Of a stretch of 64,000 nucleotides of DNA, positions 3,244-59,073 are shown piece by piece. Position 1 is the stretch's first letter; each line of letters opens with the position of its first letter. Source of the DNA: a virus; the IMG/VR virus record IMGVR_UViG_3300045988_148355, positions 58,966-122,965 of that record. One strand, written 5' to 3'. The translations under genes were made by a program, and so were the position numbers. Below the pieces are notes generated by a model, which was not told the DNA's origin, made no database searches, and saw only the letters and a list, made by a program, of their open reading frames with translations.

Positions 3244-6200
3244 ATGTCTAAGATACGTTTTCGTCCCGTTTAGGGCCCAGAAGAAAAAATAAAGGCATAT
3301 CCTCAAACTGATGGATATTTTTATGTGGCAACAGATACAGGACGAGTTTATTTAGATACAGCGACTGAGAATAAAATACCGATAGGCTCAAGCGGAGTTT
3401 AGGTAATTTATGGAACTGAAAAAGAAGTCGAAATTGATTATGATGCAGATGAGAATCCAATTGGATATTCAATTCATTTATCTAATTTATCAAGTTCTAA
3501 TCCTCATATAAATGATTTAATTTTAAATAGCGATGGAGCATTTTATCGTATTAAAAAATTTAAATTAAATGATGATAAAGAAAAAGTTGCAAGTTGTGAA
3601 AAATTATTGGCGGGTGGTGGAAATCAAGACCAAGAAATTAAAGTAAATGGTACTGTTTCTTTAACTTTAGATGGTCCTACTGATGTGCTTAATGGTGAAT
3701 CAGTAAGTGTAACCGCTCTTGTAAAATGTAGAACAATAAACGGAGATCCAGTTCTTGATTCTGTTGAAGGCACTTTAACTATTAGATAGAAAAAAAGTGA
3801 TGGTTCTTGGGAAGATATTTATAGTGAAGCAAAAACTTATCAACATAATAAACCAATTACTATTGATATTTCAGCTCATTTAAGAAAATCTTCCACACAT
3901 GAAATTGAGTTTATTGTTAGTAAAAATAGTGATCCTACTAACAATCATTTTTCTACAACTAAGAAAACTCAATTTATAACTACTCATGAATTAACTCTTT
4001 AGTGGTAGGAAAGTAAATTTAATAATAATTTGCCTTTTGACAATGGTTAGATTAATATTACTTGGTTAATGTCCAATAAAGTAAATAGCGCTATTGAAGT
4101 TTATTTTGATAATTATTTAGTTTTAGATAAAGAATATGATAATACTAATACTAGAAATGAAGATAGTATTACTATAACAAAGAATACAATTATTTTAAAT
4201 AATAATAATGATTCTATAATAACTTTAGCAAATTATTTTCTTCATGGAGAACATACCATTAAAGCTAAACTTTATTTAGTTAATAGTGGTGAAAAAGGAA
4301 ATGGTACTGATTTTATTGAGAAAGAAATTGTTATTTTAGATAAAAGTAGCAAAACTCCTTTAATTTGGACTGGGGATTTTAAAACTGAATATTACACTTA
4401 TGAAACTATTAGAATTCCTTTTAGAGTATATGATCCCAATGTAATAATTGCGAAAGTTAGCTTGTATAAAAATGGTGTCTTATTAAGTACTCGTGAAATT
4501 GCTGATTAGACTATATGGCAATATTGGGAAATTACTAATCTTTCTGTTAATGATAGTTCCTATTATACAATTAAAGTAGGAACTGAGCCATATGATTATT
4601 CTCGTAATTTTACTTTTACAATTAAAATAGACCCATTGAGAAATATGGAATTGGCTAGAAGTAATGATTTAAAAGTTAATTTTGTTGCTACTGGACGCTC
4701 TAATTCTGAGAGTAAATTAAGCCGTGAAACATTAGAAATTAATGGTAAATATGCGGAATTTAAAAACTTTAATTGGTATAATAATGGTTGGGTTTTTGAT
4801 GATAATAATACTACTTGTTTAAGAGTTAGTAATGGAGCTGAAGTCTCTATTCCTATTGGATCATTATCTTTTGATAATAGTTCTTCTACTCCTACTCATA
4901 GTATTGAAATTCAATTTAAAATTAGAAATCCACAAAATTATTCTAAAGTAATTACAAAGTATACTCGTTATAAAGCAAGTGATGATTCTGGAAAATCTTG
5001 GACTGATAGAGACGCTTGGAATGCATTTAAAGATTAGTCTACTTATGTTAATTATGATGAATTCTTAACAAAAAAATATTTACCAGAACATCCAGAAGCA
5101 CCAAGTTATGATGAATTAACTTATAATGGATTAGATCAAGATTTTAATTTAAATAATCTTGTTTGTGCTTACGGTTCTTTAAAAAATCCTTTAGGTATTT
5201 ATTTTAGCCCTCAAGATGCTGTATTTACAGCTAATGGCGATGAAGAGACTGTTTCAGTTGATTTTGTAGAAGATGAAATGTTATATTTAACATTTGTTTA
5301 TACAAGTTCTAAGCCTGGCCATACTGGTGGAGATTCTAAATTATTAGAAATTTTTTTAAACGGTGTTTTAACTAGTGTAGCTCGTCGTTCTGATAAATCT
5401 AGCAATTCTGCTTGGACAATTGATTCTGATGTGATTAAATTTATGTCTAATACTTGTGATATTGATATTTATAGTATTAGAGTTTATGATGCTAGCTTAA
5501 CTATTCCTGACGTAGTTTAGAATTATGCTTTTGATAAAAAAGATATTAATCAATGGGACCAAAAAGATTTATATGATTATAATACTATTTTAAACGATTA
5601 CGTATTTTCTTATCGCAAAATGCTTGATTACAATACTGACCATAGTGATAAACCATTAATGCCATATATTATTTTAAAAACTACTAAAAATAATAGTGAA
5701 AGCACTGATAATAGACTTCCATACTCTAAAGAGAATGGTGCTCAAAAAGGAACTATGGAATTCGTAAATGTCCCATTAGATATTGCTTATGCTAAGGGCG
5801 AACTTGATAAAATAGTTGAAAAAGAGGGTTGGAAACCAGTAATAGATGAAGAAACTAAGGAAATAAAATATACTGCGGTATAGAATTATTATTTACATCA
5901 TTGCCCCAGCTTTATAACTCTTTTTGATAAAGCAACATTTTAGGTTTAGGGAACTTCTTCTCGTAATTATCCAAGACGTAATTATAAGGCTAAATGTAAA
6001 GAAGCTATGTTTATGAATAGAGGACCTTTTGAATCTATTTATAAAGAAGAAGAAGCAAATAATAATTTAAATACAAAAAGTAAGAGTTATCTTAAATTTT
6101 TCTATATGGATAATAATACTGTTGGTACTACTAAGTTTACTCTAAAAATTGATTTTATGGAATCTTCTGGAGATTATAATAGAGGATTTGCTAATTTAGT

Positions 6201-9200
6201 TAATGAAACTTATTCTAAGCATCCAATAGAAGATTATCAGGAGTCTTTTGATAAATATGATTTATATGAAAATGCTGATGATTATAGAACTTCTATGAAA
6301 GGATATCCTGTTTTAGCATTTCATTGGCCTTCAACTAATGACAATGAATATAGTGAAAATGATATTATTTATATTGGAAAATATAATATGTTATTAGATA
6401 AGGGGTCTGATGAATGTTTTGGATTTAAACCTGATAAAAAGGTTTTATAGAATCAAATTAATGGAACTCCAAAAGTAAGAGATATTGCTGAATGTTGGGA
6501 ATTTTAGAATAATTCAAGAACATATTGTTCTTTCCGTGATCCTTGGAATAGATATAAATTATCTTTTAGACCTCCATTAATGGATGATAAAAATTCAACA
6601 GGTTACTTAACTTCTGGCGGAGCTCCAATAGTTGCTGACTCTTTCGAAGTTAGATATAACTCTAATGATGATTTAATCACAGACCAATTATTTAAGTGCA
6701 TTTCAGCGGAAGCTACCGACGCAGATAAGATAATTGAATTTACTGACGCAATAAATAATACAGTTCCCGATAGATTAAAATCAGAAACCATTATTGATAA
6801 TTCTACTGGCATTAAACATAAACAATGGACTATTACTAATCCAGGACAAAATCCTATCATCTTTGATATGAAGAATAGAAATACTTCTCGTGAATTACTT
6901 CTTGCATTAATGTCAAATTGGGAAGATGCCGTAAGTTGGGTTTGGAGTACTTGTTTAGATTGTAGCATTGATTTTGATGGAGTTTTATATGAAATTCCTT
7001 CAATGGGTCAATATGAGAAAATAGATTTAGCTGAAGCTAAGTATGAGCCAAATAAATATTATCTATTTGATAAAGTTGATGAAAATGGTAGCGAAACTTA
7101 TAAAATTGCCACTGAAGATTTTAATTTAGAAGAAAAATATTATATTTATAATAAAGACAGTAAAGTTTATAGTATAATTAAATTAACTGATGATGATAAT
7201 AAAGTTTATTAGATAAATAAATACTATATTTTATAGAATTAGGATAATAAAATTTATATCTTAGATTCTGAAAAATATAATCCTTATACAACTTATTATT
7301 CTTTTATTGAAGATGAGAGCCAAATTGATGATAGATGGTTATTACCTACACCGATAACTTATAACTCAATTACTTACCATAAAGATAGTAAGGAATATCG
7401 TCAAGCTAAATTTAAAAATGAGTTAAGCAATTATTTTAATATTGAATATTTAGCTACTTACTTTTTAATGACTGAAATTTTTGAATGTTATGACTCTCGT
7501 GGTAAAAATGCGATGTTTGCTTCTTGGGGTCCTCAAAAAGGAAATATTGAAAAAATCACTGGAATTCAACATTATATTTGGTATCCTATTTTTTATGATA
7601 TTGATACTCAATTAGGTATTAATAATACTGGTATTCCATCATTTGAATATTATGTTGATGCTACTGAAGATGGTAGTTATTCTACTAATGATAGTGTATT
7701 ATGGAATAATTTCTATACTTTCTTTAAGAGCAAAATTGTTGATAAATACAAGCAATTAATGGGTAAGCCAAATGGATCTTATGATTAGAGCCAAGTAAAA
7801 CAAATTTTTAAGAAAGAATCTGGAACTTCCTCTAAAAAAAGTGATGTTGTTGATAAATGGTATAAAACAGATCCTTCTTTATTCCCAGGTAGTTATGCTG
7901 TATAGGGAGAGCGTCCTATTATTGCTTTAAATTTAGATGAAGAATATAAATATATTATTCCAACTAATTCAGCGGCCAAGGATACTATTTTTGGTCGTAT
8001 TACTAATGGTGGTTAGTATGAAGTAGAAACTGATTAGTATTTTTATGCTTTATAGGGTGACCGCAATCTTTATCGTTCTCAATTTTTAACTAATCGTCTT
8101 AATTATATTGACTCTTGGTTAACCGTAGATGAATATTCTGGAGATAGTGGTAGTAATAATATTATAAGTCGTATTTCTGCTAACAATCCGAATACTACAT
8201 CTGATGAATGGATTGAAGGAACTAATAATTAGGGATTAACTAATTTAATACCAAATTCTCCTTATTGGAAAGATGGAGTTGAATTTGGCGCTAAAAATCA
8301 TATGTTCGATGGTGAATATTGGATTGAGATGGAACCAGCACGTCGTTCTTATGTTACTGTTGGAACAGACGGAGCAAATTTCCCATCTTAGAAATATGAT
8401 GGTTTAACTCCAGTTAGATTTACTGCCCCAGACTTAAAAAAAGGTATTATGTCAAGTGGTAATTATCGCGAACAATTATATTATATTTACGGACTAGAAC
8501 AAATGAAATCTCTTGGAGATTTAAGTAAATTATATTTCCAAGAATTATTCATTAGAGGTAAAGCTAATAAATTAGTAGATTTATTATTAGGATATGATGG
8601 TCTTTCCGAGCAAGGAAAAGAATATAAAAATAATGATGTAAATAATTGGAGTTATCCTAGTGAAGGTATGCCTCTATTAAAAGAAATGAATCTTTGTAAT
8701 ATTAAATTTTTAAATCCAGTAGCTTTAGATTTAACTAAAAGTGAAAAATTAGAAAACTTTAGAAATACCGGTTCTAATGTTACTAAAGTTTAGTTTGCTG
8801 AAGGAGTTGCTTTAAATACTTTATATTTAACTGATTATACAAATTACTTAAGTTTAATAGAAGCAAATCTTTTAACTAAATTAGTTACTAAATATGTATA
8901 TCCTACAGTTAATCCTATTACTAATCGTCTTGAGGTTGCAGAAGAAAATAAGGGGTTATATATTAAGAATCTAACGGATGTCGGAGATACCGCAATTACA
9001 ACAAGTATAAAAACTTTTGATATCCGTGGTGGTAATTTAGATTATTATTCTTATGAATTATTAAGACGTTATTATCTTGGGTGTGAAAAAAGTAATTTAA
9101 TGGGATGTGAAATTAATTTAACTAATGTCCAATGGAGTCCTTATAGACTGTTAAATGATGATAAAACAGAATTGAATAGTAATATTGAGTATTATAAAGA

Positions 9201-10944
9201 TAATGGACACTTCCAATTAGAAAAAATTAATATAGAAGATATAAGTAAAATTACTCCAAGTGAAATAAAGAATAATTTAATTTATTATTATGATAATAAT
9301 ATAAATGGATATAATGATATTCATAATAAAATTACTGATTATACTTTATTACGTAATTTATATAATAAAGCTCCGGTTTATTTCAAAGGTATTAATTAGA
9401 CTCATCCTAATATAACTGGTGTTATTTATATTGAAAATGCTCAAGAAATAGAAGAACATGTGATTCAAGAAGAACTGCAAAGTATTTATCCTAATTTAAT
9501 TATTTTTGTAAAAAATGTTAAAAAAGAATATTCTGCTAAATTTGTTCTTGAACAGGAAAATACGGATGGAGTACTAACTCAAGAAATTTTAAAAACTTAG
9601 AAATTACCTTTATCAAGCACTAAGTTTTTTGATAATCCTACGAATTCTTCAAATGAGACTTATATTTCTTTTGGCAGCTTGCAAGAAAAAATGCCTACTT
9701 ATGACTTTAAAGGTTGGGAAGATGATACTGGTGAATTAATAATTACAATTGGAAAAGATGTAAATGAAAAAGATATTGTTTTAAAAGATAATTGGGATTC
9801 TTTATCTTTGCGATCTGATAAAATAGATTATATTTTTAAAGCGAGATTTGAGCGTAAATCTTATACAATTACTTTTGTTAATGGCGATCGTGTTATTGAT
9901 GATTCAACTGTAAAGAAAGTATTTAATTATGGTGAAAGAATTACTGTTCCAGAAGAATTCTATTATTTTAATAATACAGAAGTATCTGATTTACCAAAAG
10001 GTGAAGACTCATTAGAATGGACTTGGAGATAGACGGGATGGGCAGATAAAGATGGAGTTAAAATTGATTTAACTAAACAATTAGCTTATTCCGACCGTGA
10101 ATTCTATGCTGTTGGAGAGCCGATTAGTGTTTATGATAATATTTTAACTAATGATTCTACTCATAAATATTATGATATTATAAATTCTGATGGAGAGTTA
10201 TCATTTGTAATGACTGACTTAGCTAAGAATTTAAAAGGCAAAGTTACTTTACCTACAACCTATAATGGCTAGCCAATTACAAGGATTAGATATACTTAGG
10301 TGAATCCCTCTGCAGCTGTTGGTATTCAAGTAAATCCTAATATTACAGCAATATTTTTTGCTCCAAAAGATAGTAATAAAGTTTCTGTAATAGATGATTA
10401 TGCTTTTATTTTAGATGAAGGATTAGAATATTTCCAATTTAGTAATTGTTTAAAGAAAATTGGTATTAAAGCATTTTATAGATGTCCTTTAAGTTATAAC
10501 AATATAATTCCTTATTCTTCTTCAACTGAAGGATTAAGTTTTGGATCTCAAGCATTTTATCAAAGTAAGATGGGATCTTATTCTCCTTATAATTTAATTA
10601 TAGAAGGATGTAAAGATGGTATTCTTAATTTTGATTTAAATGCATTTTCTGGTTAGACAATTTTAAATATGTCTGGTAATCAATTTAAAGGATATACAGG
10701 AGCTATTTAGATATAGATTGGTACAAATAAACATCCAATTAAACAAATTACTGTTGATAGTTCTGGTAATATTTTTACCCCTAGTCGTACTGGTATGCCT
10801 ACTATTGTTAATGGATATACTGGTCGTTTTAGATATTATTATGTTGGTAGCTATGGTGAAAATGTTAAAAATACTTTACACAATATTTATGAGGCAATGA
10901 TATCTAATAGAGCGAACTTTGAAGAAGAACCTATTGTAAAGTGA
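3244..10944 (+). CDS. giant structural protein (~2,566 codons; tail fiber, host-specificity or tail-associated protein) containing ~33 in-frame TAG codons; ATG 3244, stop TGA 10942
   Basis: Fourteen track ORFs (4069.., 4636.., 5278.., 5620.., 6007.., 6580.., 7468.., 8449.., 9100.., 9679.., 10300.. and others) all lie in frame 1 (start mod 3 = 1). They are separated only by TAG. The first TAA/TGA in this frame after 3244 is TGA 10942. RBS aaaggag at 3231-3237. Confidence 0.55.
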
Positions 10945-11250: not shown

Positions 11251-12927
11251 TTGATAGTTAAAAATGATAGCGTTATCGAGCAAGCTAAGTGGGAAGAACT
11301 TCAAAAGAAAATCAATACTTTAGCTAAAGATAACAAAATAAAAAACGTTAATGGAAAAATCGTTGAAATAAAATCTATTGAAGACTATTATAGTAACATC
11401 ACTGGTATTGTTCAAATGAAGAAGCTAGATCCATCTGTTCTTCGTATACCTTTAGATGAGCCTATTATAAATATAAATGCTGATACTCGTCAAATTGAAT
11501 TAACTAAAGAGTTTGGAAAAACTCAATTGCTTACTGTTGAAAATGATCATTTGGCAGAAACAATTTATTTTCAAATTGATAGATATTTTGATTTATAGGA
11601 TTTGGCGGCTGATGATATTAAAATTTATATTTAGTATTATTTAAACGATCAAATTCAAGGTTATTCTGAAGCTATTTGCCCTGATATTGGTACTGCTGGA
11701 AAATTAATTTTTGGTTGGCAAATTAGTGATGAAGTAACTAGTGAATCTGGTACTTTATAGTTTTCTATTATTTTCTTCAAAAAGAATCCAAAAGATAATA
11801 ATAATTTAATGTATGTATTTAATACATTACCTGCGCAAATGGTTATTAATAAAACTTTAGACATTGATGAAGATTTAGTTACTGCGCAACCTGTTGATTA
11901 TTTAACTGGGTATTTAGAAAGCTTAATTGATTCAAAGAAATCCGCAGGCTTTGGAGTTCCTGATAATGTGGCTTTCTTGACAAGTATTTTGAATAACAAA
12001 TCAGTTTATTTAACTGGTGATAAATTATATGCTTTAGCTTATAATGATACTTTAAATAATCCAGATAATACTACTATTGAGTATAAATGGATTTGTAATT
12101 ATAGAGGAACTAATACTGAATTAAAAAATGGTATTGGTTATGAATATAAAAAAATTGTTGATGATAATAGTATTTTTAGTGGAGATATGGCTTATAATGA
12201 AAAATTGACCTATTTTACTAAAAATGGAGATACTTATATTAATAGTAGTAGTGATATTAATCTTGAAAATTATGTTGCTAAAAAGAATGACCTTTATTTA
12301 AAAGTTCAATATTGTGAAGTTGATGGATGTGGAAGTTATAGTGTGACAGCATTTGGCGCAACCGCGAATCAAGTAAGTAAAGAAGTTAAATGGGTAGGAT
12401 TAAGTGTTGTTGTGGAAGGTATCAGTGAAGATTTTAAAATTATTCTTGATCCCTCTCCTGATAATGGATGTTATTATGGCTCTTCTAATACAATTACTGC
12501 TATTGGATAGAATGATGAGGGAGTTCAATGTACTTATCTTTGGACAAAGAATGGATCTGAATTTAGTAATGAAAAAACTGTAACTTTAACTCAAGAAGAT
12601 AATTACACTTTAACAGTTCATGGGTATAAAAATAAAGATAATATAGATTATGGTCCAATTAATTTTACTAATTATTTTGATCCTATTAATTTAGTGCCTA
12701 CTGGTGAAGTAAAAACTGAAAATGGAAAATATATTGTTAATATCACTAATACTAGTGAGTTGGGAAATGGAATTTATGAATATTAGTGGAAAAATGCTGA
12801 AGGTGTTACTCAAATAACTACTTCTGGAACTAATAATGCAATAGAAATAAATGAAAATATTACTCAAGTGGCTGTCATTATCAAAAAAGGCGAAAGAAAT
12901 TCAAAGCCAGGAGTACTTACGATATAA
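11251..12927 (+). CDS. structural protein (~558 aa) with a conserved VENDHLAETIYFQIDRYFD motif; several in-frame TAGs; TAA 12925
   Basis: Track ORFs 11251..11598 and 11809..12510 share a frame and are joined through TAGs. TTG start preceded by RBS gaaaggaag. Confidence 0.5.
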
Positions 12928-13633: not shown

Positions 13634-14662
13634 ATGGCTCTATTTAAAATTTTAAAAGGAGACTCAAATAATTTAGTTTCCTATGACAATGCTGAAGTGG
13701 TTAATGGTAAAGTTCCTTTTCCTGCCTTGGGTTCAGGAAAAACTTTATTTACAACAATAGACAGTACTCCTATTACAGAAGGATATGCTTATTTCACAGA
13801 AGATACTCATAAATTTTATATTGATACTAAAGACAAAAGATTAAATTTATATACTGATCACTCGGATTATGCTACTTATGATGAAAATGGACGTAATTTA
13901 GCAGAATTATCAGAAGTATCTTATGAAAATATTGATGATACTGGAAGTAAAATTGGTACAATAAATATTAATGGAATTGAGCATAATGTTACTTGTCCTA
14001 CTAATATAGTAAACAAACCTATAAATAAATATGTGTTTACAGCAAAAGCAAACTAGAATACATTTACAATTCCTTTCGATTTTGATGATAGTAGCGCTTT
14101 AACTTTATATTATAATGGTATTATGTTAAAAGAAACAGATCATTATACCATTAAAGGAAAAGTTATTACTTTAAATGGATGGACTAGTGAAGCTAATGAT
14201 TATCTTGCGGTTATGGGTATTGAAGGAGCTGCCGCGATCAACGTAGATGAAAAAGTTGCTTAGATTTAGGAAGCAGTAGACAATGCTGAAGTAACTATTA
14301 ATAATAAAGTAAGTAGCGCTATTAAACAAATTGATGATAAATTAGCAACTGTTCCCGATGACGTAACACAAGCAATTTATAAAAATAAGTCTAATATAAT
14401 GACTAAAGATGGTAAAATTACCATGGATAATACTTATGTTCCTATCGCGGATATGGATTTAGCAACTAAAAAATATGTTGATAATGCCACACCTCCTACA
14501 GTTGGAACTACTACTGATTATTCTATTTATATTGGATCTACTCAACCCGCATCTGGGACCGCACCTTTAGTGTGGATAGATACAACTGCTAAAACTGGTA
14601 CTTTTAAATATAGAACTTCTACCACAGGCACTTGGACACCTGTTCCCGTGGCTTGGATTTAA
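13634..14662 (+). CDS. tail-fiber-like protein (~342 aa); N-terminus MALFKILKGDS...GYAYFTEDTHKFYID resembles the phage fiber N-terminal domain; three in-frame TAGs
   Basis: Track ORFs 13634..14056 and 14399..14662 are in the same frame. RBS aaaggag upstream. Stop TAA 14660. Confidence 0.5.
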
Positions 14663-14696
14663 TATAAATTTATTGTAAGAAAAAGGAGATAATATT

Positions 14697-15107
14697 ATGG
14701 ATCAAAATTTAATTAATCAGTTATTCCAAGTATGTTTGATTCCTATGCTTGGCGCTTTAACTACTTTTATAGTTATTTGGATTAAAGCAAAAAGTACAGA
14801 ATTACAAAAGAAAACTAATAATGATATTTTGAATAAATATGTACAAATGGCTACTGACACAATTACCAACTGTGTTATTGCCACTAATCAAACTTATGTA
14901 AATTCTCTTAAAGAGCAAGGTAAGTTTGATGAAGCTGCTCAAAAAGAAGCATTTTAGAGAACTTATCAAGCGGTATTACTTATTTTAAGTGATGACGCTA
15001 AAGAGTATTTAAATAATGCTTTTGGTGATTTGAATAAATATTTACAAGAAAAGATTGAATCTACAGTAAATAATTATCGTACTCCAAGTGATGATTTAAA
15101 ACAATAA
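14697..15107 (+). CDS. small membrane protein (single TM helix LIPMLGALTTFIVIWI); one in-frame TAG; TAA 15105
   Basis: Track ORF 14697..14957 extends through a TAG. Hydrophobic N-terminal segment followed by a charged tail. RBS aaaaggag upstream. Confidence 0.4.
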
Positions 15108-15111
15108 AAAT

Positions 15112-15152
15112 AAGGGAGACATTCTTAATTGAATGTCTCCCTTATTTTTTTT
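15112..15152. terminator. bidirectional rho-independent terminator between convergent transcripts
   Basis: Hairpin aagggagacattc-ttaatt-gaatgtctccctt. A-run on one side and a T10 run on the other. Confidence 0.6.
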
Positions 15153-15476
15153 TTATCTAAATGGATTTTTCCATCGTCGATTAATTTCTTCATAGCCTTT
15201 TTTAGGAAAGTATAAAACTTCACCATTTTTAAAAGTTAAATTATCTTTATTCATTATTTTAATTTGATTTAAATTAATAATTAAACTTGGTGGGATAAAG
15301 ACAAAATCTGGATGGTAAACTAAAGTCCCTATATAATTTTTAAAAGAAGTTTTTAAAGTTTTACTATTTAAAACCTCATTTTCTAAATGGCAACATAAAT
15401 TTCGTTTTTGGATGTCAGCATATAATACTTTATTCAAATCAATTTTTATTTCTCCATTAGGAGTGTCTAAATATTT
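15153..15476 (-). CDS. LytTR DNA-binding domain, reading frame offset -1 relative to the upstream REC domain ORF
   Basis: Track ORF 15153..15437 shows LytTR signatures: LYADIQ..., FVFIPPSLIINLNQI..., TFKNGEVLYF. Its frame is open upstream to ~15476, where the domain begins (EIKIDLNKVLY). Confidence 0.5.
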   Translation of the reverse strand, partial: KYLDTPNGEIKIDLNKVLYADIQKRNLCCHLENEVLNSKTLKTSFKNYIGTLVYHPDFVFIPPSLIINLNQIKIMNKDNLTFKNGEVLYFPKKGYEEINRRWKNPFR

Positions 15477-15808
15477 TTATATTCACGTCTTTTTTCTTCT
15501 CTAATTTCATGTAAAATAGAAAAAATTTTTTCTTTATTAACAGGTTTTTTGACAAAATTAAATGCTTTTACTTCATAAGAAGCCACTCCATAATTTATTT
15601 GAGAGGAAACAAAAATTATTTTTCCAATATAGCTATTTACTCTTAAGAGATGAGCTATTTCAATACCATCCATTTTTTTAAATGTAATTCCTAAAAAAAT
15701 TGCATCATAATCAATATTAGAGTTAATTAATTTTTCAGGATCGGTAAATTTATATACATATCCTGGTAAATTAAAATCTTTAAAATACTGATTTATTATT
15801 TCTTCCAA
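15446..15808 (-). CDS. response-regulator receiver (REC) domain protein; the track ORF ends at TAG 15467, and reading that TAG as sense gives TAA at 15446
   Basis: Motif DAIFLGITFKKMDGIEIAHLLR...IIFVSS matches REC beta3-alpha3, but the phosphoacceptor Asp is replaced by Gly (FLGI). Confidence 0.5.
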
Positions 15809-15949
15809 TGAGTCATTTTGCTAATCGCTATTGTCGCAAACACCTACGATAAAAATTTTAATCACCTTCATTTTGTTTATTTTAGAAAAAATTTTTCTAT
15901 CTTTATATTCTTTCTACATTATAATTATACAAAAATTTTTAAATATTGT

Positions 15950-16100
15950 AAAATAAAAAATTATAAAGTGTCAAATTTATTTAATTTTAAGTAAGTGAAA
16001 TTTTTATCCAAAAAGTGTCAGTAATTATAATATATTTACACAAAATAAAAGTTATATATTAATGAAAGGAAAAGATAAAACCTTTCATTAATATATTTCT
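15950..16100 (+). promoter_or_regulatory. AT-rich divergent promoter region with a repeated aaagtgtca motif and a hairpin immediately upstream of the RBS
   Basis: Intergenic region between the - strand regulator and the + strand genes. Candidate -10 TATAAT at ~16027. Hairpin tgaaagg...cctttca at ~16061-16088. Confidence 0.25.
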
Positions 16101-16114
16101 CCGGAGGTAATAAC

Positions 16115-16561
16115 ATGAATACTTATGGTTATCCATAGCAGTAGTATCCAATAGGTAATAATAGACCTATTTATGGAACAACTGCTACACCTGTGATTCA
16201 AAACAATACTGCATAGCGAATTAGACCTGTTGCTTCTTTAGAAGAGGTTCGAGCTATGAGTATAGATTTTGATGGTTCAGTTTTTTATTTTCCCGACTAT
16301 GCTAATCGTAGAATTTATACAAAACAAATAAATATGGATGGAACGGCTTCTATTAATATGTATGAATTAAAGGAAATCCCGAATTCTTCTTAGCCTAACA
16401 ATGATTATATAACACGAGAAGAATTCAATACTACTCTAACTTCTATTAAAGAAGTATTCGCATAGATCATGGGATCTAATAACGCGGTTGCGCCGTCTCA
16501 GGGGGCGGATTAGCCAGCTCAATAGCAACCAGTAGAGAGCAAACCGCAGTTTAATTTTTAA
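16115..16561 (+). CDS. Gln-rich hypothetical protein (YPQQQYP and PAQQQPVE once TAG is read as Q); 8 in-frame TAGs
   Basis: RBS ggagg then ATG. The frame is open to TAA 16559 only if TAG is read as sense. Confidence 0.45.
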
Positions 16562-16573
16562 GGAGAGTTTCAA

Positions 16574-16822
16574 ATGATGCAATCAATGAATCCAATGCAG
16601 ATTATTGCTATGATTAAAAACGGTCAAAATCCATAGCAATTAGTTTTATCTATGCTTGAAAATCAAATGGGTGGAACGCCAATGGGTAATAATTTATTAC
16701 AAATGGCACGGAACGGTCAATCCGATGACATTGAAAAATTTGCTCGTAATTTGTTTGAATCAAGAGGCTTGAATTTCGATAAAGAATTTAATAGTTTTAA
16801 GTCCCAAATGGGGTTTAAATAA
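16574..16822 (+). CDS. small hypothetical protein (82 aa, one TAG)
   Basis: RBS aaggagag then ATG ATG. Stop TAA 16820. Confidence 0.4.
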
Positions 16823-16848
16823 ATAAAATTATAGAAAGAGGTTTTGTT

Positions 16849-17730
16849 ATGTTTAATTACAATTATCCGATGAGCACGCCGAATTATTCATTATCTGATA
16901 TTGCTGCGGCTTCTGGAAATGGCTATCGTAATAATGATGGCGGAATGTGGGGAGACGGAGCATGGTGGATTATTATCCTGTTCTTATTCTGCTTCAATGG
17001 TTGGGGCGGTAATGGCTGGGGTAATAATGGTGCTAATGGTTCTGGTTTCCAAGGCACTACAACCAGAGAAGAAATTGGTTATGGCTTTAACATGAGCGAT
17101 CTTAAATCTGGGGTTAACGGTTTAGCTTCTAGCCTTTGTAATGGTTTTAGTGGAGTAAATACTAATCTTTTAAGTGGCTTTGCTAATCTTGCTGAAACTA
17201 ATAATGCTAATACTCGCACTTTACAGAGTGATATCTGTAATATGGGTATGAATAATATGCAAAATACCTTTAGTATCACTCAGGCTATTAATGCTGATAC
17301 TGTAGCAAGTATGCAGAATACTAATAATTTAACTCAGCAATTAAATAATATGGCAGCTACTAATGCTCAATGTTGCTGCGAGAATAAACAGTTAATTCAA
17401 TCTAGCTTTGCTGATCTTAATTACAATCTCGCTAGTATCGCTTGCCAGAATCGTTAGGCTACCGTTGATGGTGTCCGCGATATTATTGACAACAATAATG
17501 CTAATATGCGTTCTATTCTTGACTTCCTTGTTCAAGATAAAATTGAGACTCTTACCAGCGAAAATAGCACTCTTAAAAATTAGATTTCTCAAAATCTTCA
17601 AAATGCTTATCTTATTGATCAGTTGTCTCCAAAAGCAACTCCTGCTTATATTGTTGCTAATCCTTATACCGGTGTTAGCTATACCAGTTATGGATGGGGA
17701 TATGGTTCAGGATGCGGTTGCAATTCCTGA
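16849..17730 (+). CDS. Gly/Asn-rich structural protein (GWGGNGWGNNGANGSG) with a Cys-rich C-terminus; two TAGs; TGA 17728
   Basis: Track ORF 16849..17457 continues in frame through TAGs at 17455 and ~17581. Confidence 0.45.
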
Positions 17731-17751
17731 TTGAAGAAAGAAGGTTAAATT

Positions 17752-18174
17752 ATGGAAATAACGGCTAATGCTTTACAATCAGTCGCTACTGGTTCTAATG
17801 TAGTATTTACTAACATCGCTGTTGCTGGAAACTATTCCATAATGTATCGCGAGGGTAGCGGTTTAGTTACCCTCCGCGGTCTTACGAACGGTCAGCGCAG
17901 AGCTCGTTTCCGCATTTCATTTGGAGGTAATATAGGACTTCCAACTACTGGAACTGCGGGAGCTATTTCTTTGGCTATAGCCATTAATGGAGAGCCAGTT
18001 ACTACTTCTACGATGATTTCTACTCCTACGGCTACTGGACAGTTTAATAATGTTTCACGTGCTTTATTCCTCGATGTGTTAGGCGGTTGTTGCACTCAAA
18101 TTAGTATTGAAAACACGAGTTCATAGGCTATTGATGTTGAAAACGCTAGCTTAATTATCGAGAGAGTGGCATAA
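17752..18174 (+). CDS. C1q/BclA-C-terminal-like jellyroll protein (putative capsid or fiber decoration); one TAG
   Basis: Segment ISFGGNIGLPTTGTAGAISLAIAINGEPVTTSTM resembles BclA/C1q-type trimeric domains. Track ORF 17752..18126 extends through a TAG to TAA 18172. Confidence 0.4.
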
Positions 18175-18187
18175 GGAGGTTTTTTAA

Positions 18188-18421
18188 ATGTGTGATAAAT
18201 TCCAAGAAATTAAAAAACAATTATTAGCTCAAGTAGAAAGCCAAATGGCTCATTTAGAATGTGTTGATACAAAGGAAATGGGCGAAGTAATAGATATGAT
18301 AAAAGACCTTGAAGAGGCTATTTATTATTGTACTATTACTGAAGCTATGAATGAATTACCTGAAACCACACATTATTATACTGAAAAATATAAATCTCCT
18401 CATAAAAAAAAGAATCTATAA
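18188..18421 (+). CDS. hypothetical protein
   Basis: RBS aaggagg then ATG. Standard TAA stop. Confidence 0.4.
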   Translation: MCDKFQEIKKQLLAQVESQMAHLECVDTKEMGEVIDMIKDLEEAIYYCTITEAMNELPETTHYYTEKYKSPHKKKNL

Positions 18422-18425
18422 ACCT

Positions 18426-18734
18426 ATGACATATGATTATGATTGGGAAGATTATGATTATGATGAGCATGAATATGAAATGCCAACGAGTGGAAAATCT
18501 CATGAAACCCATGATAGTAGAGAAGGGCGTAGTGGTATTCATAGAAAGATGTATATAGAAGCCAAAGAACTTCATAAAGATAAGAGTGTTTAGATAAAAG
18601 AATTAGATAAGTATCTTCAAGAATTAAGCTCTGATATAGTAGAAATGATTGAAGATGCATCTAATGATGAACGTTCTTATATGGAGAAGAAAATTTAGGC
18701 TTTAGCATCTAAAATTGGATCTATGAATGGTTAA
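18426..18734 (+). CDS. acidic hypothetical protein (two TAGs)
   Basis: ATG 18426. Same frame as track ORF 18351..18593. Open through TAGs to TAA 18732. Confidence 0.35.
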
Positions 18735-19026
18735 TATTAATAATAGGAATTGGAGGATACTATTAGTATCTTCCAATCATCCTATGTTGATGCGACCTTC
18801 TGGAATATATACTTTAGGTTCTTGCGATGATCCTACTTCAACAATTTATATTAATGAAAATGTTAGTAATAAAAAATTAAAAAAAGTATTAGCACATGAA
18901 CTAACTCACGCTGCTATTTTTAGCTATAATATTTCATTAAAACCAGAAGAAGAAGAATTGATTGCGGATTTGGTGGGAACTTATGGTGAAGAAATTATAA
19001 ATAATACTAATCTTTTATTTAAATAG
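18727..19026 (+). CDS. SprT-like zinc metallopeptidase domain protein (HELTHA motif); ends at TAG 19024 or, with TAG read through, at TGA 19045
   Basis: HExxH motif in the context VLAHELTHAAIFSY. Confidence 0.4.
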   Translation: MVNINNRNWRILLVSSNHPMLMRPSGIYTLGSCDDPTSTIYINENVSNKKLKKVLAHELTHAAIFSYNISLKPEEEELIADLVGTYGEEIINNTNLLFK

Positions 19027-19034
19027 ATAAAAAA

Positions 19035-19080
19035 AATAAGGGAATGAAACTATTTTTGTTTCATTCCCTTATTTTTTTTT
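19035..19080. terminator. bidirectional rho-independent terminator
   Basis: Hairpin aataagggaatgaaac / gtttcattcccttatt followed by a T10 run, between convergent genes. Confidence 0.6.
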
Positions 19081-44472: not shown

Positions 44473-45039
44473 TTAAATTAAATAAACTGATGATTGAGGA
44501 ACCAAATCTTCTAATTGTATTTTATCAATAACTGTATAAGGAATTCTGATAATTGGAATATTATTTATCTTACAATAATTATTCCTCATTTTATCTCGTT
44601 CTTTCGTTTTTAAAAAATTATCTCTATTGTTCCAGCCTGTTTTATCATATGAAAAATGCTATCTACCATCAAATTCAATAATATATTTATCATTAACATA
44701 TAAATCAAATTTAATTGGTTTTTTACTTTCTTCATAATAAAAATCATCAAAAGATTTCTCTGAAATATAAGAAATATTATTTTCTTCTAAAATCTTTTTT
44801 ATTTTTGTAATACCTTGAGAATCATGAGAACACAATCCACAACTTTTAGTATTTCCACTTTTAAGGCTAGATCCTCTAATATATTTTAAATTGCCACACT
44901 CACACTAACACAACCAAGTATAACATCCATGATTATCTAATGGGCCCACATCTAAAACAGTTAATTTATCAAAAACTTGATTCCTTAAATCTAATCTTAA
45001 TTTAGTCCCTAATTTTTGAGACTATTTTTTCTTTTCCAT
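44473..45039 (-). CDS. putative homing endonuclease (zinc-ribbon LTVL...WLCQCECG...SCG plus a PD-(D/E)XK/DUF559-like domain FDLYV...IEFDGRQH); three in-frame TAGs
   Basis: Paralog of 36387..36983. Missed by the ORF track because of the TAGs. Confidence 0.5.
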
Positions 45040-45056
45040 AAATAACTACCTTCTTT

Positions 45057-45084
45057 CTCCATAAATATTTAAATATTTATGGAG
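45057..45084 (-). terminator. palindromic hairpin terminator downstream of the ligase
   Basis: Perfect palindrome ctccataaatattt / aaatatttatggag. Confidence 0.45.
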
Positions 45085-45089
45085 AAAAA

Positions 45090-46304
45090 TTAGTTAAAAA
45101 TGTCCTTAATAGTACAATCTTTAGAATTTTTATCATCTCTAAAAGACTTAAAAAAGCCATGTCTTAAAGTATGCTCTTCATTATTACGTTGCATACATTG
45201 TATGGCAACTACTCGATTAAGGTATTTTTCAGGTTCTTTAGCAAAAGCTTCTTTAAGTTCATCAGTTAATCCAGAGGATACCGTTCCGATTTCAATAAGA
45301 TTTCCTTTATCATCATAGGCGCCTAACTTCATAGATGTCTTCCATCCATAATAATAGCCTTTGGTAACTGGCATATAGTATCTTTCATCATCGTTTATTA
45401 GTTGAGACCTACAATTTGTATTATTACAATTTTGAGTATACTTATAATAATAATTACCACTTAACAATTTAGGATTAATCCAACCAGCAAAACAATGGTC
45501 TTCTTCAAAGCAATCATAAAAACTTGGTTCTTTTACTTCCCAATACTGCCAGCTTTGAATTTCTTTACCATCATAATATTTAGTTGCCTCTTCAAATCCA
45601 ATACAAATACAATCAACATAGTCCATTTTTTTAATTTTAATAGAAGACCATGCCGGTCGCTTATCTGGAACATACGGAGCATCTTTTTTCTTTAAAACGG
45701 CGCCTTCTTCACCCGCAGTAAGAGCGGCCGCAGTAAATTCTTGAATATTATCAAGAACCGCATCCGCCAGTTCCATATAAGAATATTGGCTTAAATTAAA
45801 TTTATCCCAAATAGCTTTTAATACCTGATAACGTGTCCAAGCACCCTCATTTTGAATATTAATTCCATTATATTTAATAACATCATGTAAATAATAATGG
45901 ATTAATCCACTGGACTGCTGACGTTTAATCGCTTCAGGTGCTAAACATCCCATAATTTTAGTCACATCTTTAGAAGTTTTACCTGGATAATAAATTTCAC
46001 CTATTAAAATAGTGCCGGAAGGTAAATCTTTGAGTGCTTCATGAATATGAGGGACATTTGCTAACTTTTCAGTTAAAATACCAGTATTTGCACTTATATT
46101 ACGACTAAATAAATAATCATAATGTTCTGTCTTTTCATACTGATACCAATATCCATCTTTCTTTAATTCAGCAAAATATTCACCGCCATTACAAACAACG
46201 GGGAAAAGACTCTCTTTACCATCAGGCAATTTCCAAATCTTCATCGCTTGGATACAATCTGCTTCTGGAGCATACTTATCAAGCAATTCTTTAGAGAAAC
46301 TCAT
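45090..46304 (-). CDS. ATP-dependent DNA ligase (a nucleotidyltransferase-family RNA ligase cannot be fully excluded)
   Basis: Motif I AELKKDG. Motif IV EGAVLKKKD. Motif V WSSIKIKK. Confidence 0.65.
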   Translation of the reverse strand: MSFSKELLDKYAPEADCIQAMKIWKLPDGKESLFPVVCNGGEYFAELKKDGYWYQYEKTEHYDYLFSRNISANTGILTEKLANVPHIHEALKDLPSGTILIGEIYYPGKTSKDVTKIMGCLAPEAIKRQQSSGLIHYYLHDVIKYNGINIQNEGAWTRYQVLKAIWDKFNLSQYSYMELADAVLDNIQEFTAAALTAGEEGAVLKKKDAPYVPDKRPAWSSIKIKKMDYVDCICIGFEEATKYYDGKEIQSWQYWEVKEPSFYDCFEEDHCFAGWINPKLLSGNYYYKYTQNCNNTNCRSQLINDDERYYMPVTKGYYYGWKTSMKLGAYDDKGNLIEIGTVSSGLTDELKEAFAKEPEKYLNRVVAIQCMQRNNEEHTLRHGFFKSFRDDKNSKDCTIKDIFN

Positions 46305-48819: not shown

Positions 48820-49264
48820 CTGCTAATTCATTCCACAAATGGCCATCGTGCCCGGAAATTTTTCTTAAATCAATTTTAACTTCTTTTTCTGTTTCATAAT
48901 AATCTTTAATTAAATCAAGATTTTCTGGAGCTTTTTTATTAGATTTAATCCAATTATTACGTTCCCATCCATACATCCAATTAGTAAAAGTATTTACACA
49001 ATAGGCTGAATCACTATATACAGTAGGGATATCATTAGTCCATTCTCCATTGTCATGCTTGCCATATTTTTTCAATACATGAAGAATAGCTTTAATTTCT
49101 TCGCGGTTATTGGTAGTATCTTCAAAAGCGTTTATTTGACAAGCATCAATTACAACACCGTTTTCAGGATTGCTATCATATTCAATAACAACAAACCCAT
49201 AACCACCGCTATTATTTATTTGTCCGTTTTTACGACACGAACCGTCCGTATAAATTGCTATCAT
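48740..49264 (-). CDS. rnh: ribonuclease H
   Basis: Motifs IYTDGSC, YSDSAY and GHDGH..NELAD. The 3' end overlaps the annotated topo A start. Confidence 0.7.
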   Translation of the reverse strand: MIAIYTDGSCRKNGQINNSGGYGFVVIEYDSNPENGVVIDACQINAFEDTTNNREEIKAILHVLKKYGKHDNGEWTNDIPTVYSDSAYCVNTFTNWMYGWERNNWIKSNKKAPENLDLIKDYYETEKEVKIDLRKISGHDGHLWNELADGLATGKITAEEVLKKYGRDSKNSNS

Positions 49265-49362
49265 TATTTTTTATACCATATTTTATTAAATCCACTTAAA
49301 GAATAGATATTTTTATAATCATTATATACATCTAATCTTTTTTCTTTATTTTCTTTTCTTCG

Positions 49363-49950
49363 CTAAATTTCTATCCAAATTTCTTGTTGATTAGAACTAA
49401 TTTGACTTTTTCTAGCAAAACTTCTTACTTTAGATAAATATTCTTTTGATTTAACATATTCTATAGCTTCAGGACATATATCTATCCAACTGTCGCCCTT
49501 CCAAATATGTTTAAATCCTGATAAAGAAATTTTTTTACTATATAAAGGATAAACTTCAGACAACATTTTCCCCTAAAGTAATAAAGTTCTAATGTTTTGG
49601 ACTTCTTGTTCAGTTAAAGAAGAATTTGGATTTTTCTCTCCAGGTAAAGAAGGCCCTCCTTCTCCCCCTTTAGTTTCATTATAACCATTATTATAAGAAC
49701 CATAATATTCAATCCAATATTTCTCACGTTCAAATAATTTTTCTTTTGAAGTTAATTCAATTATTTCAAAAGAAAAATTATCAATTCCATATTTTCGGAA
49801 TGCTTTATGAATACTATAATTATACTAAGGATTTTTTTCTAATATTGATTCTGATTTATGAGAAATCCATCTACGTTCTATATTAACAGAACATCCTATA
49901 TAAATTTTTTTATTTATATTATTAGTTATTTTATAAATACCACAGCTCAT
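49363..49950 (-). CDS. GIY-YIG homing endonuclease with two in-frame TAGs
   Basis: N-terminus MSCGIYKITNNINKKIYIGCS...RRWISH. Track ORF 49363..49566 is its C-terminal DNA-binding part. Paralogous to 50785..51300. Confidence 0.6.
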
Positions 49951-49993
49951 ATTCTATTCACCTCATAAGAATATGAAATTATGAATGATTGCC

Positions 49994-50311
49994 TTAACAA
50001 AATTTGTCCGGGCAATCATGTGATGGCCTCCCTAAAAATTCATTTTCTCCACAATCAATATGAAAAGAAGTATTAGTAAAAATAGTAATTTTATCAATAA
50101 AATAATCGTTAATAATATTTACTTTATTATCTGGAAATAACTTTTGTAATTGCTCATGGAGGTCTCTACAAGTAATTATATCAATATCTTTATTAACATG
50201 AGCTAAAATAACGTCATCTTTACGAATAGGAATTATTTCAATAGGTGTTCCTTTATAATTACTTACATATCCCTTATCAGTTTTATACATCAATATTGGC
50301 CCTTTCTGCAT
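49994..50311 (-). CDS. hypothetical protein
   Basis: Track ORF. Confidence 0.25.
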   Translation of the reverse strand: MQKGPILMYKTDKGYVSNYKGTPIEIIPIRKDDVILAHVNKDIDIITCRDLHEQLQKLFPDNKVNIINDYFIDKITIFTNTSFHIDCGENEFLGRPSHDCPDKFC

Positions 50312-58935: not shown

Positions 58936-59073
58936 AGTAGTAGAACTCCTTTCTATCTATTTCTATAAATATATTAACATAAAAATTATTAAAAGGCAAG
59001 TTTTAGGATTTTTGTTAAAAAAATTTCTATGGGTGTGAGTAATTGGAACTACGGCCGATCGCGTTAATCAGGG

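Follow-up and report, generated by a model that had tools for sequence, protein, structure and literature searches.

Response regulators of the LytR/AlgR family, such as ComE (structure 4cbv), AgrA (4g4k), LytR and BtsR, combine a receiver (REC) domain with a LytTR DNA-binding domain. A gene of this type is present on the minus strand of a 64,000-nucleotide stretch of viral DNA, positions 58,966 to 122,965 of the IMG/VR record IMGVR_UViG_3300045988_148355, which is termed the window here and to which all coordinates refer. In its intact form the phage regulator shares with the family the two-domain architecture, a length of ~238 aa, the fold, the beta4 Ser/Thr, the beta5 Lys-Pro and LytTR motifs such as PSLxINL. 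It differs in being the product of a viral gene, in having a recoded TAG codon and in having Gly in place of the phospho-accepting Asp; in the window the gene is also split between two reading frames. Probably, a ~238-aa factor in which a pseudo-receiver is joined to LytTR has been broken here by a genuine, strain-private insertion of two nucleotides, as part of the decay of a dispensable module.

Pseudo-receivers are domains recognized as PF00072 that are without one or more of five catalytic residues, and approximately 2% of PF00072 domains have no Asp (PMC12632262). The phage regulator is a pseudo-receiver protein by this definition, because its PF00072 match lacks the Asp. It resembles the atypical response regulators, e.g. 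ChxR (PMC3960148), in being PF00072 minus a catalytic residue, and it differs from them in its LytTR output domain and its viral location. Proteins similar to REC-LytTR have already been catalogued in phages, as there is a full-length match to phrog_8810 of the PHROG collection (E 1.5e-24 to 2e-29), a family listed as of ‘unknown function’.

The third point of comparison is with gut phages that use genetic code 15 (Borges et al., bioRxiv 10.1101/2021.08.26.457843; PMC9523058). The window phage is like these in having TAG as a sense codon, TAG-free replication genes, and tail, lysis and other genes rich in TAG. The reported genome range of recoded gut phages is 150–210 kb, and the size of the window phage falls inside it. 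The REC-LytTR architecture, pseudo-receivers and code-15 phages are all known; the window gene adds a phage-borne atypical case. Metagenomes have revealed a large clade of ~110–200-kb TAG-to-Gln phages in which the regulator is conserved; the label of one matching contig is human gut.

One regulator in two reading frames

The G+C content of the window is 30.4%. When TAG is read as sense, open reading frames (ORFs) of 100 aa or more cover 92% of the sequence instead of 72%, and an ORF of ~2566–2568 codons with 33 in-frame TAGs is obtained (3244..10944, plus strand), which encodes a tail-like protein. TAG is exchanged with CAA/CAG in 67/98 and 69/101 substitutions in alignments to close relatives, and because it swaps mainly with these codons it is assigned to Gln (code 15). 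The replication genes are free of TAG: the 1337-aa DNA polymerase has 0 TAG versus 51 CAA/CAG, and the primase-like and GyrB-like genes also have none. Tail genes and many others are TAG-rich. No tRNA gene, and hence no suppressor tRNA(CUA), was found within the 64-kb window, where about one-third of the genome is visible.

With TAG as sense, both ends of the REC frame given in the first-pass annotation of this DNA turn out to be misread. The start at TTG 15808 is an artefact of taking TAG 15823..15821 for a stop, and the ORF remains open upstream through beta1. The supposed end after ...REEKRREYKNI is TAG 15469..15467, a sense codon, and the frame actually terminates at TAA 15448..15446. The REC frame reads MKVIKIFIVGVCDNSD-TAG-QNDSLEEIINQYF...FLGITF...EIREEKRREYKNI-TAG-TLLMEK-TAA, the residues after the first TAG being QNDSLEE. 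The LytTR frame, offset by -1, reads TAA-KYLDTPNGEIKIDLNKVLYADIQ...RRWKNPFR-TAA and is open from 15476 to TAA 15155..15153. The two overlap at a run of five adenines (A5, 15478..15474) within TATAAAAATATTTAG, and both are open together over 15476..15449. The frames and Pfam agree with the original observation that REC and LytTR are encoded in separate frames and that a -1 (equivalently +2) correction is needed to unite them. Database versions of the gene vary accordingly in length, with 113, 157 and 217 aa (IMG and ENA).

The identity of the two halves is supported by several comparisons. Pfam gives Response_reg (PF00072) 37.7 bits (cut-off 30.2) and LytTR (PF04397) a marginal 23.5 bits on the fragment (cut-off 22.6), with 21.0 bits, just below the cut-off, on the fusion. 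An exhaustive HMMER search with P0001, an intact orthologue, yields 7,424 relatives (E <= 1e-3); those at the top are mostly full-length REC-LytTR proteins of 235–250 aa with 25–35% identity. The AlphaFold (AF2) model of an intact orthologue, based on a 70-sequence alignment, has a pLDDT of 95.4 and consists of a (beta-alpha)5 receiver (residues 7–128) followed by a beta-rich domain (131–233). Foldseek matches the model to full-length ComE 4cbv (E 1e-13), and its C-terminal half to the AgrA LytTR domain 4g4k (TM 0.80) and to 3d6w (TM 0.72). Members of the cluster are named ‘DNA-binding LytR/AlgR family response regulator’ by JGI/IMG. Scores with the NCBIfam equivalogs (LytR, BtsR, AgrA) are far below the cut-offs, and none of the named regulators is therefore an orthologue of the protein.

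Two C. difficile phages and gut-virome fragments encode distant homologues, and identity to deposited phage records is at most 27%. Megablast of positions 14000–18000 against 50,697 deposited phage records gives no match at the DNA level. When 185,579 bacterial and archaeal genomes were scanned with an alignment of P0001 and P0002, no relative came up, and thus no host or prophage clue.

The orthologues compared at the junction come from 17 IMG/VR loci that span it (85–97% protein identity, contigs of 47–197 kb). All 17 encode a single contiguous protein of ~238 aa, ...REEKRREYKYLDTPNGE..., with both domains in one polypeptide. The DNA at the junction is TATAAATAT in 15/15 aligned orthologues versus TATAAAAATAT in the window, i.e. 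a +2 insertion that changes A3 to A5. A single frame is also present in P0001/L023 (97% identity, from a cluster of 574 sequences), P0002/L019-22 (68%), P0005/L024-26 and L204/L205 (~45–47%), P0008/L186 (36%), P0006/L185 (34%), and L206, L207 and L209 (31–38%). In total, the offset is carried by 0 of >25 related loci. A contiguous frame in orthologues, which had been proposed as a check, is thus found throughout, so the split is private to the window strain. A single-base homopolymer slip does not account for it, the lesion being +2 nt relative to all orthologues.

A programmed shift was among the causes first considered. In dnaX and the phage tail-chaperone genes G/GT, two overlapping frames are joinable by -1 frameshifting, and at the window locus a -1 shift in the overlap would likewise fuse both domains. 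However, the locus lacks the slippery heptamer and the stimulatory structure of such genes, and its offset is not conserved. The overlap sequence, U AAA AAU AUU UAG, does not fit an X XXY YYZ heptamer, and the 90 nt downstream show no stimulatory RNA (minimum free energy -9.1 kcal/mol, z = -0.42 versus shuffles); the relatives are all in one frame with A3. In addition, efficient transcriptional slippage calls for runs far longer than A5. A programmed shift is thus rejected: restoration of the full-length regulator at A5, whether by -1 ribosomal frameshifting or by transcriptional slippage, is extremely improbable.

A separate frameshift occurs in P0003 (ENA, 190 aa), where it follows the PKK motif near the C-terminus, towards the 3′ end of the gene, ...YFPKKAMKKLIDDGKIH... 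Broken regulator copies are thus found more than once in metagenome assemblies.

Sequencing error or decay of a module

Small indels private to the window were counted against ~10 close relatives over ~58 kb, and five were found (Table 1). One more candidate, at 12924, was set aside as ordinary polymorphism, as it is common to L004, L006 and L010. Apart from the insertion in the regulator, the only frame-breaking private indel across the ~58 kb is that at 18411, in the operon divergent from the regulator. It splits a 181-aa gene (~18188..18734, plus strand) into 77-aa and 102-aa pieces; this gene is contiguous in 11 relatives.

The split is not confined to one assembly. The 157-aa split product P0154, with the post-shift tail NIQTLLMEK, is on four ENA contigs. 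Two of the four, one assembled with SPAdes (ERZ1745033) and one with MEGAHIT (human-gut run ERR1018273), match the window at 100% identity across 8.5 and 6.4 kb, respectively, and both have A5. The A8 run at 18411 is also in the SPAdes contig of ERZ1745033, and the frameshift at this site recurs in ENA contig L210. The REC fragment of the window, as read in the standard code, is the JGI/IMG protein P0157 on a 123-kb contig. Since SPAdes and MEGAHIT both reproduce the lesion, neither the assembler nor homopolymer errors of long reads are a likely source of it, and the A5 lesion is probably not a sequencing or assembly error.

It should be pointed out that some observations weigh the other way. 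Both lesions consist of extra A's inside A-runs, which is the signature of homopolymer error too. One of the split-bearing contigs has a reported coverage of only ~7x. All of these contigs are 100% identical to the window and may stem from one sample or library, so that the assemblers are independent, but the samples perhaps are not. The different frameshift of P0003 adds that broken copies do arise in metagenome assemblies. An artefact, with a true genome that has A3 and A7 and a gene that is intact in the window strain, nevertheless appears unlikely. A5 was obtained in SPAdes, MEGAHIT and JGI assemblies alike, which disfavours the sequencing error offered initially as one cause. Moreover, the ~58 kb compared contain no further frame-breaking private indel, and both lesions cluster in one 3.6-kb module that has been deleted outright in a sister strain. 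Short reads also do not typically gain two bases in a run of three.

The sister strain provides a second line of evidence. The closest allele across the junction is P0166, which shares window-private residues and is in frame there. It is encoded on the contigs L212 (147.8 kb, ERZ28662295) and L213 (ERR1137179), which are 96.8–98.6% identical to the window. Both have a 3.16-kb deletion that corresponds to ~15794..18956 of the window, with a 7-nt overlap at the junction (L212:4881-4887). The deletion takes codons 1–26 of the regulator, its promoter, the five genes at 16115–18734 and most of the 106-aa gene that ends the divergent operon. Two frameshifts in the window strain, together with co-deletion in the sister, are the strongest argument for real decay of a non-essential module. 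Of the causes named in the first-pass annotation, decay is therefore favoured, by the second private frameshift and the sister-strain deletion. Judged from the sequences, the pseudo-receiver LytTR regulator and the divergent TAG-rich operon probably form an accessory module that is decaying in the sub-lineage of the window. The co-loss is indirect evidence that regulator and operon work together, and is the only evidence for it here.

The intact gene would encode a single-chain, phosphorylation-independent transcription factor with the pseudo-receiver fused to LytTR. The insertion interrupts, at residue ~132, the linker of two residues that joins helix alpha5 of REC to the first strand of LytTR. 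The change from A3 to A5 would leave a REC-only product and a LytTR ORF without a start codon, and because of the latter, DNA-binding output has most likely been lost in the window strain.

Alternatively, the two pieces might function separately, with a free pseudo-receiver and a LytTR domain translated on its own through reinitiation or a non-canonical start, perhaps constitutively active. That the split falls exactly in the linker makes this conceivable and counts against simple loss. In the LytTR frame, ATT and TTG codons also follow a GGAG at a distance of ~8–13 nt, and the regulator family itself may use a non-canonical start. However, this GGAG represents Gly-Glu codons that are present in intact orthologues too. 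The first canonical in-frame start, TTG 15437, would cost ~13 N-terminal residues of the domain, including its first strand. No other lineage is split, and the frameshift in the operon and the sister deletion point to loss and not to innovation. A working two-piece regulator is thus considered improbable, and decay of the module remains the preferred reading.

The acceptor position, the start region and the early TAG codon

The phage protein has FLGI where FLDI is expected, as originally noted, and the missing phospho-Asp is confirmed: Gly61 is in the phospho-acceptor column both in HMMER alignments to MrkE 2qv0 and 6m8o and in the 70-sequence family alignment. In the latter, the column is D in 58/70, and the N-terminal motif is IAICDD. 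The active-site residues of the phage protein are C12-D13-N14 (aligned to C-D-D), G61, S89 and K109-P110; the second acidic residue is thus Asn. The regulator, lacking a catalytic residue, is presumably phosphorylation-independent. Among the called genes within ~5–10 kb on each side in five lineages, where the ~190-kb genome is partly visible, no HisKA or HATPase was found, and hence no cognate histidine kinase.

Within the clade the acceptor column varies. It is Gly in the window lineage and in three further phage lineages (L019, L024/L204 and P0008), Asp in L205, P0006, L206/L207 and L209, and Glu in P0007. L204 and L205 (IMG/VR 3300026522_000023 and 3300045988_151351) have near-identical regulator alleles, with FLGI versus FLDI; the Asp/Gly state is thus polymorphic inside one lineage. 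Comparison of the lineages suggests that the ancestor was probably a canonical receiver and that the acceptor residue was lost more than once.

The start codon is also variable, with ATG 15871 in the window lineage, TTG in L014, TGG in L019 and AAG in L024. A Shine-Dalgarno-like GAAGGTGA / AAAGGAGGAG is conserved at the start region (window 15854..15871, minus strand; L019 ~6040–6062; L024 ~5930–5960). ATT/ATA codons are in frame 3′ of it, and L024 has no ATG, GTG or TTG before beta1. The start of the regulator is possibly a non-canonical codon, and ATG 15871 is uncertain as the start in the window lineage. ATG 15919, chosen by the ENA gene caller, was rejected, as relatives have ATA there. 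At 15919..15914 (minus strand), a window-specific A-to-G change makes ATG-TAG 5′ of the gene, where relatives have ATA-TAG, and yields the 157-aa product P0154.

The TAG at codon 17 has counterparts in divergent lineages. A TAG is present 5–8 codons after the beta1 Cys in 5/7 lineages (window, L019, L024/L204/L205, P0008 and P0006), within 3 codons of the codon 17 position. In neighbouring genes, merely 11–14% of window TAG codons remain TAG in those lineages. An early TAG is not universal, as L206/L207 and L209 are without it. The comparison, which was post hoc, may point to selection that keeps an amber codon early in the regulator gene. Such a codon would imply that the regulator is made only after the code switch of the phage.

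Upstream DNA and gene neighbourhood

Coordinates of the regulator gene, its surroundings and the window-private small indels are given in Table 1.

Table 1. Features at the regulator locus and small indels private to the window
Feature	Coordinates	Strand	Basis or remark
Holin gene, convergent with regulator	14697..15107	+	phrog_13712, E 1.4e-37
Bidirectional terminator hairpin, 19-bp stem	15106..15149		Between regulator and holin gene
LytTR DNA-binding domain, -1 frame, KYLDTPNGEIKIDL...RWKNPFR	15153..15476	-	Stop TAA 15155..15153; PF04397 23.5 bits; AgrA LytTR TM 0.80
A5 run	15474..15478	-	A3 in orthologues; two A's are a strain-private insertion
Pseudo-receiver (REC) half	15477..15871	-	ATG 15871 to insertion site; PF00072 37.7 bits
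Gly61 codon GGA	15689..15691	-	Phospho-acceptor Asp column (FLGI); alignments
In-frame TAG, codon 17, read as Gln	15821..15823	-	Kept in 17/17 close orthologues and 68% lineage
Promoter-like site of regulator, TTTACA-17-TATAAT	15924..15952	-	Conserved in 68% lineage
Conserved upstream block, candidate operator	15965..16021	-	Two exact TGACACTTT and TCACTTAC
Divergent TAG-rich operon	16115..19047	+	148, 82, 293, 140, 181, 106 aa
Private indel, AA inserted	15478/15477		Coding, regulator
Private indel, A8 versus A7 in relatives	18411	+	Coding, 181-aa gene; second strain-private frameshift
Private indel, poly-A length change	15154		Just past regulator stop codon
Private indel, 1 nt	60735		Intergenic
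Private indel, 1 nt	55042		Intergenic

The same gene order is kept in every lineage examined: tail-like genes and the holin gene, the hairpin, the regulator on the opposite strand, an intergenic region of ~240 bp, and the divergent operon. The regulator had been described as divergent from a late structural operon. Its divergent orientation stands; the late structural character is unsupported, as searches of the operon with Pfam and PHROG found no function except an M78-like peptidase in the last gene. The product of that gene (18727..19047, plus strand) is a 106-aa HExxH protein that matches Peptidase_M78/IrrE-like and DUF2268. M78/IrrE-like peptidases partner with repressors in other mobile elements.

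The first divergent gene (16115..16561, plus strand) is preceded by a strong GGAGG Shine-Dalgarno. Of its 148 codons, 7 are TAG and 7 are CAA/CAG, and no gene with a higher density of TAG was seen in the window. Directly 5′ of its Shine-Dalgarno is an inverted repeat (16054..16096) whose 16-nt arms match perfectly around an 11-nt loop. This repeat shows a compensatory T:A to A:T change in L001, and a hairpin of different sequence is at the same place in L019 and L024. Candidate roles are those of a 5′ stabiliser, an attenuator or an operator.

LytTR-box repeats, which were predicted at the outset ahead of the divergent operon, can be recognized in part upstream of the regulator. An exact TGACACTTT occurs twice (15973..15965 and 16020..16012) and nowhere else in the 64 kb; between these copies lies TCACTTAC (15998..15991), the CACTT cores being 20 and 27 nt apart. 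The 12-mer CTnACACTTTTT (16021..16010) persists in the 68% and 47% identity lineages despite diverged flanking intergenic DNA. AgrA and ComE boxes have an ACAGTT core, which the ACACTT core of the upstream block resembles. The canonical spacing and a wider regulon, on the other hand, did not emerge; both points weigh on the negative side, and binding-site statistics single out no target for the regulator. LytTR sites are paired 9–10-bp direct repeats upstream of target promoters, typically 21–22 bp apart, whereas the TGACACTTT copies are 47 bp apart. A search of the window for TGACACTTT with one mismatch found 18 copies versus 18.4 expected, which is the chance level. The two exact copies are thus a weak form of the predicted repeats.

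It is proposed, with low confidence, that the intact protein would bind the CTnACACTTTTT/TGACACTTT elements upstream of its own gene and, when bound, may control its own promoter and/or the divergent operon. A broader scheme combines this with the early TAG. The intact protein would then be a code-switch-gated, kinase-independent regulator that acts on CTnACACTTTTT and times the divergent operon, and possibly lysis, as the holin gene adjoins. This scheme is speculative and its correctness is doubtful.

Elsewhere in the window are two larger private insertions, of 755 nt (~49259..50013, with ORF 49264..49950, minus strand) and 675 nt (~44478..45152, with ORF 44473..45039, minus strand). Both are lacking in all 10 close relatives, and each has one ORF. 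The ORF at 49264..49950 begins MSCGIYKITN...IYIGCS, which is GIY-YIG-like. This resemblance suggests that the insertions are mobile homing-endonuclease genes.

Taken alone, the frameshift in the regulator is nothing unusual: a single strain has acquired a private mutation that inactivates the gene. Both readers of raw sequence and gene callers that use the standard code mis-annotate genes of TAG-recoded phages, as with the start and stop of this gene. The co-decay of regulator and divergent operon ties the two together as one dispensable module, and this provides a concrete hypothesis on the target of the regulator. If the early TAG does gate expression, the phage would here be using recoding to time one particular regulator; loss of the phospho-Asp would free that regulator from host kinases, and both the window strain and the sister with the deletion would count as natural knock-outs of a non-essential module. 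The labile acceptor, which is D, G or E in these orphan REC-LytTR regulators, represents a natural series for the change from receiver to pseudo-receiver.

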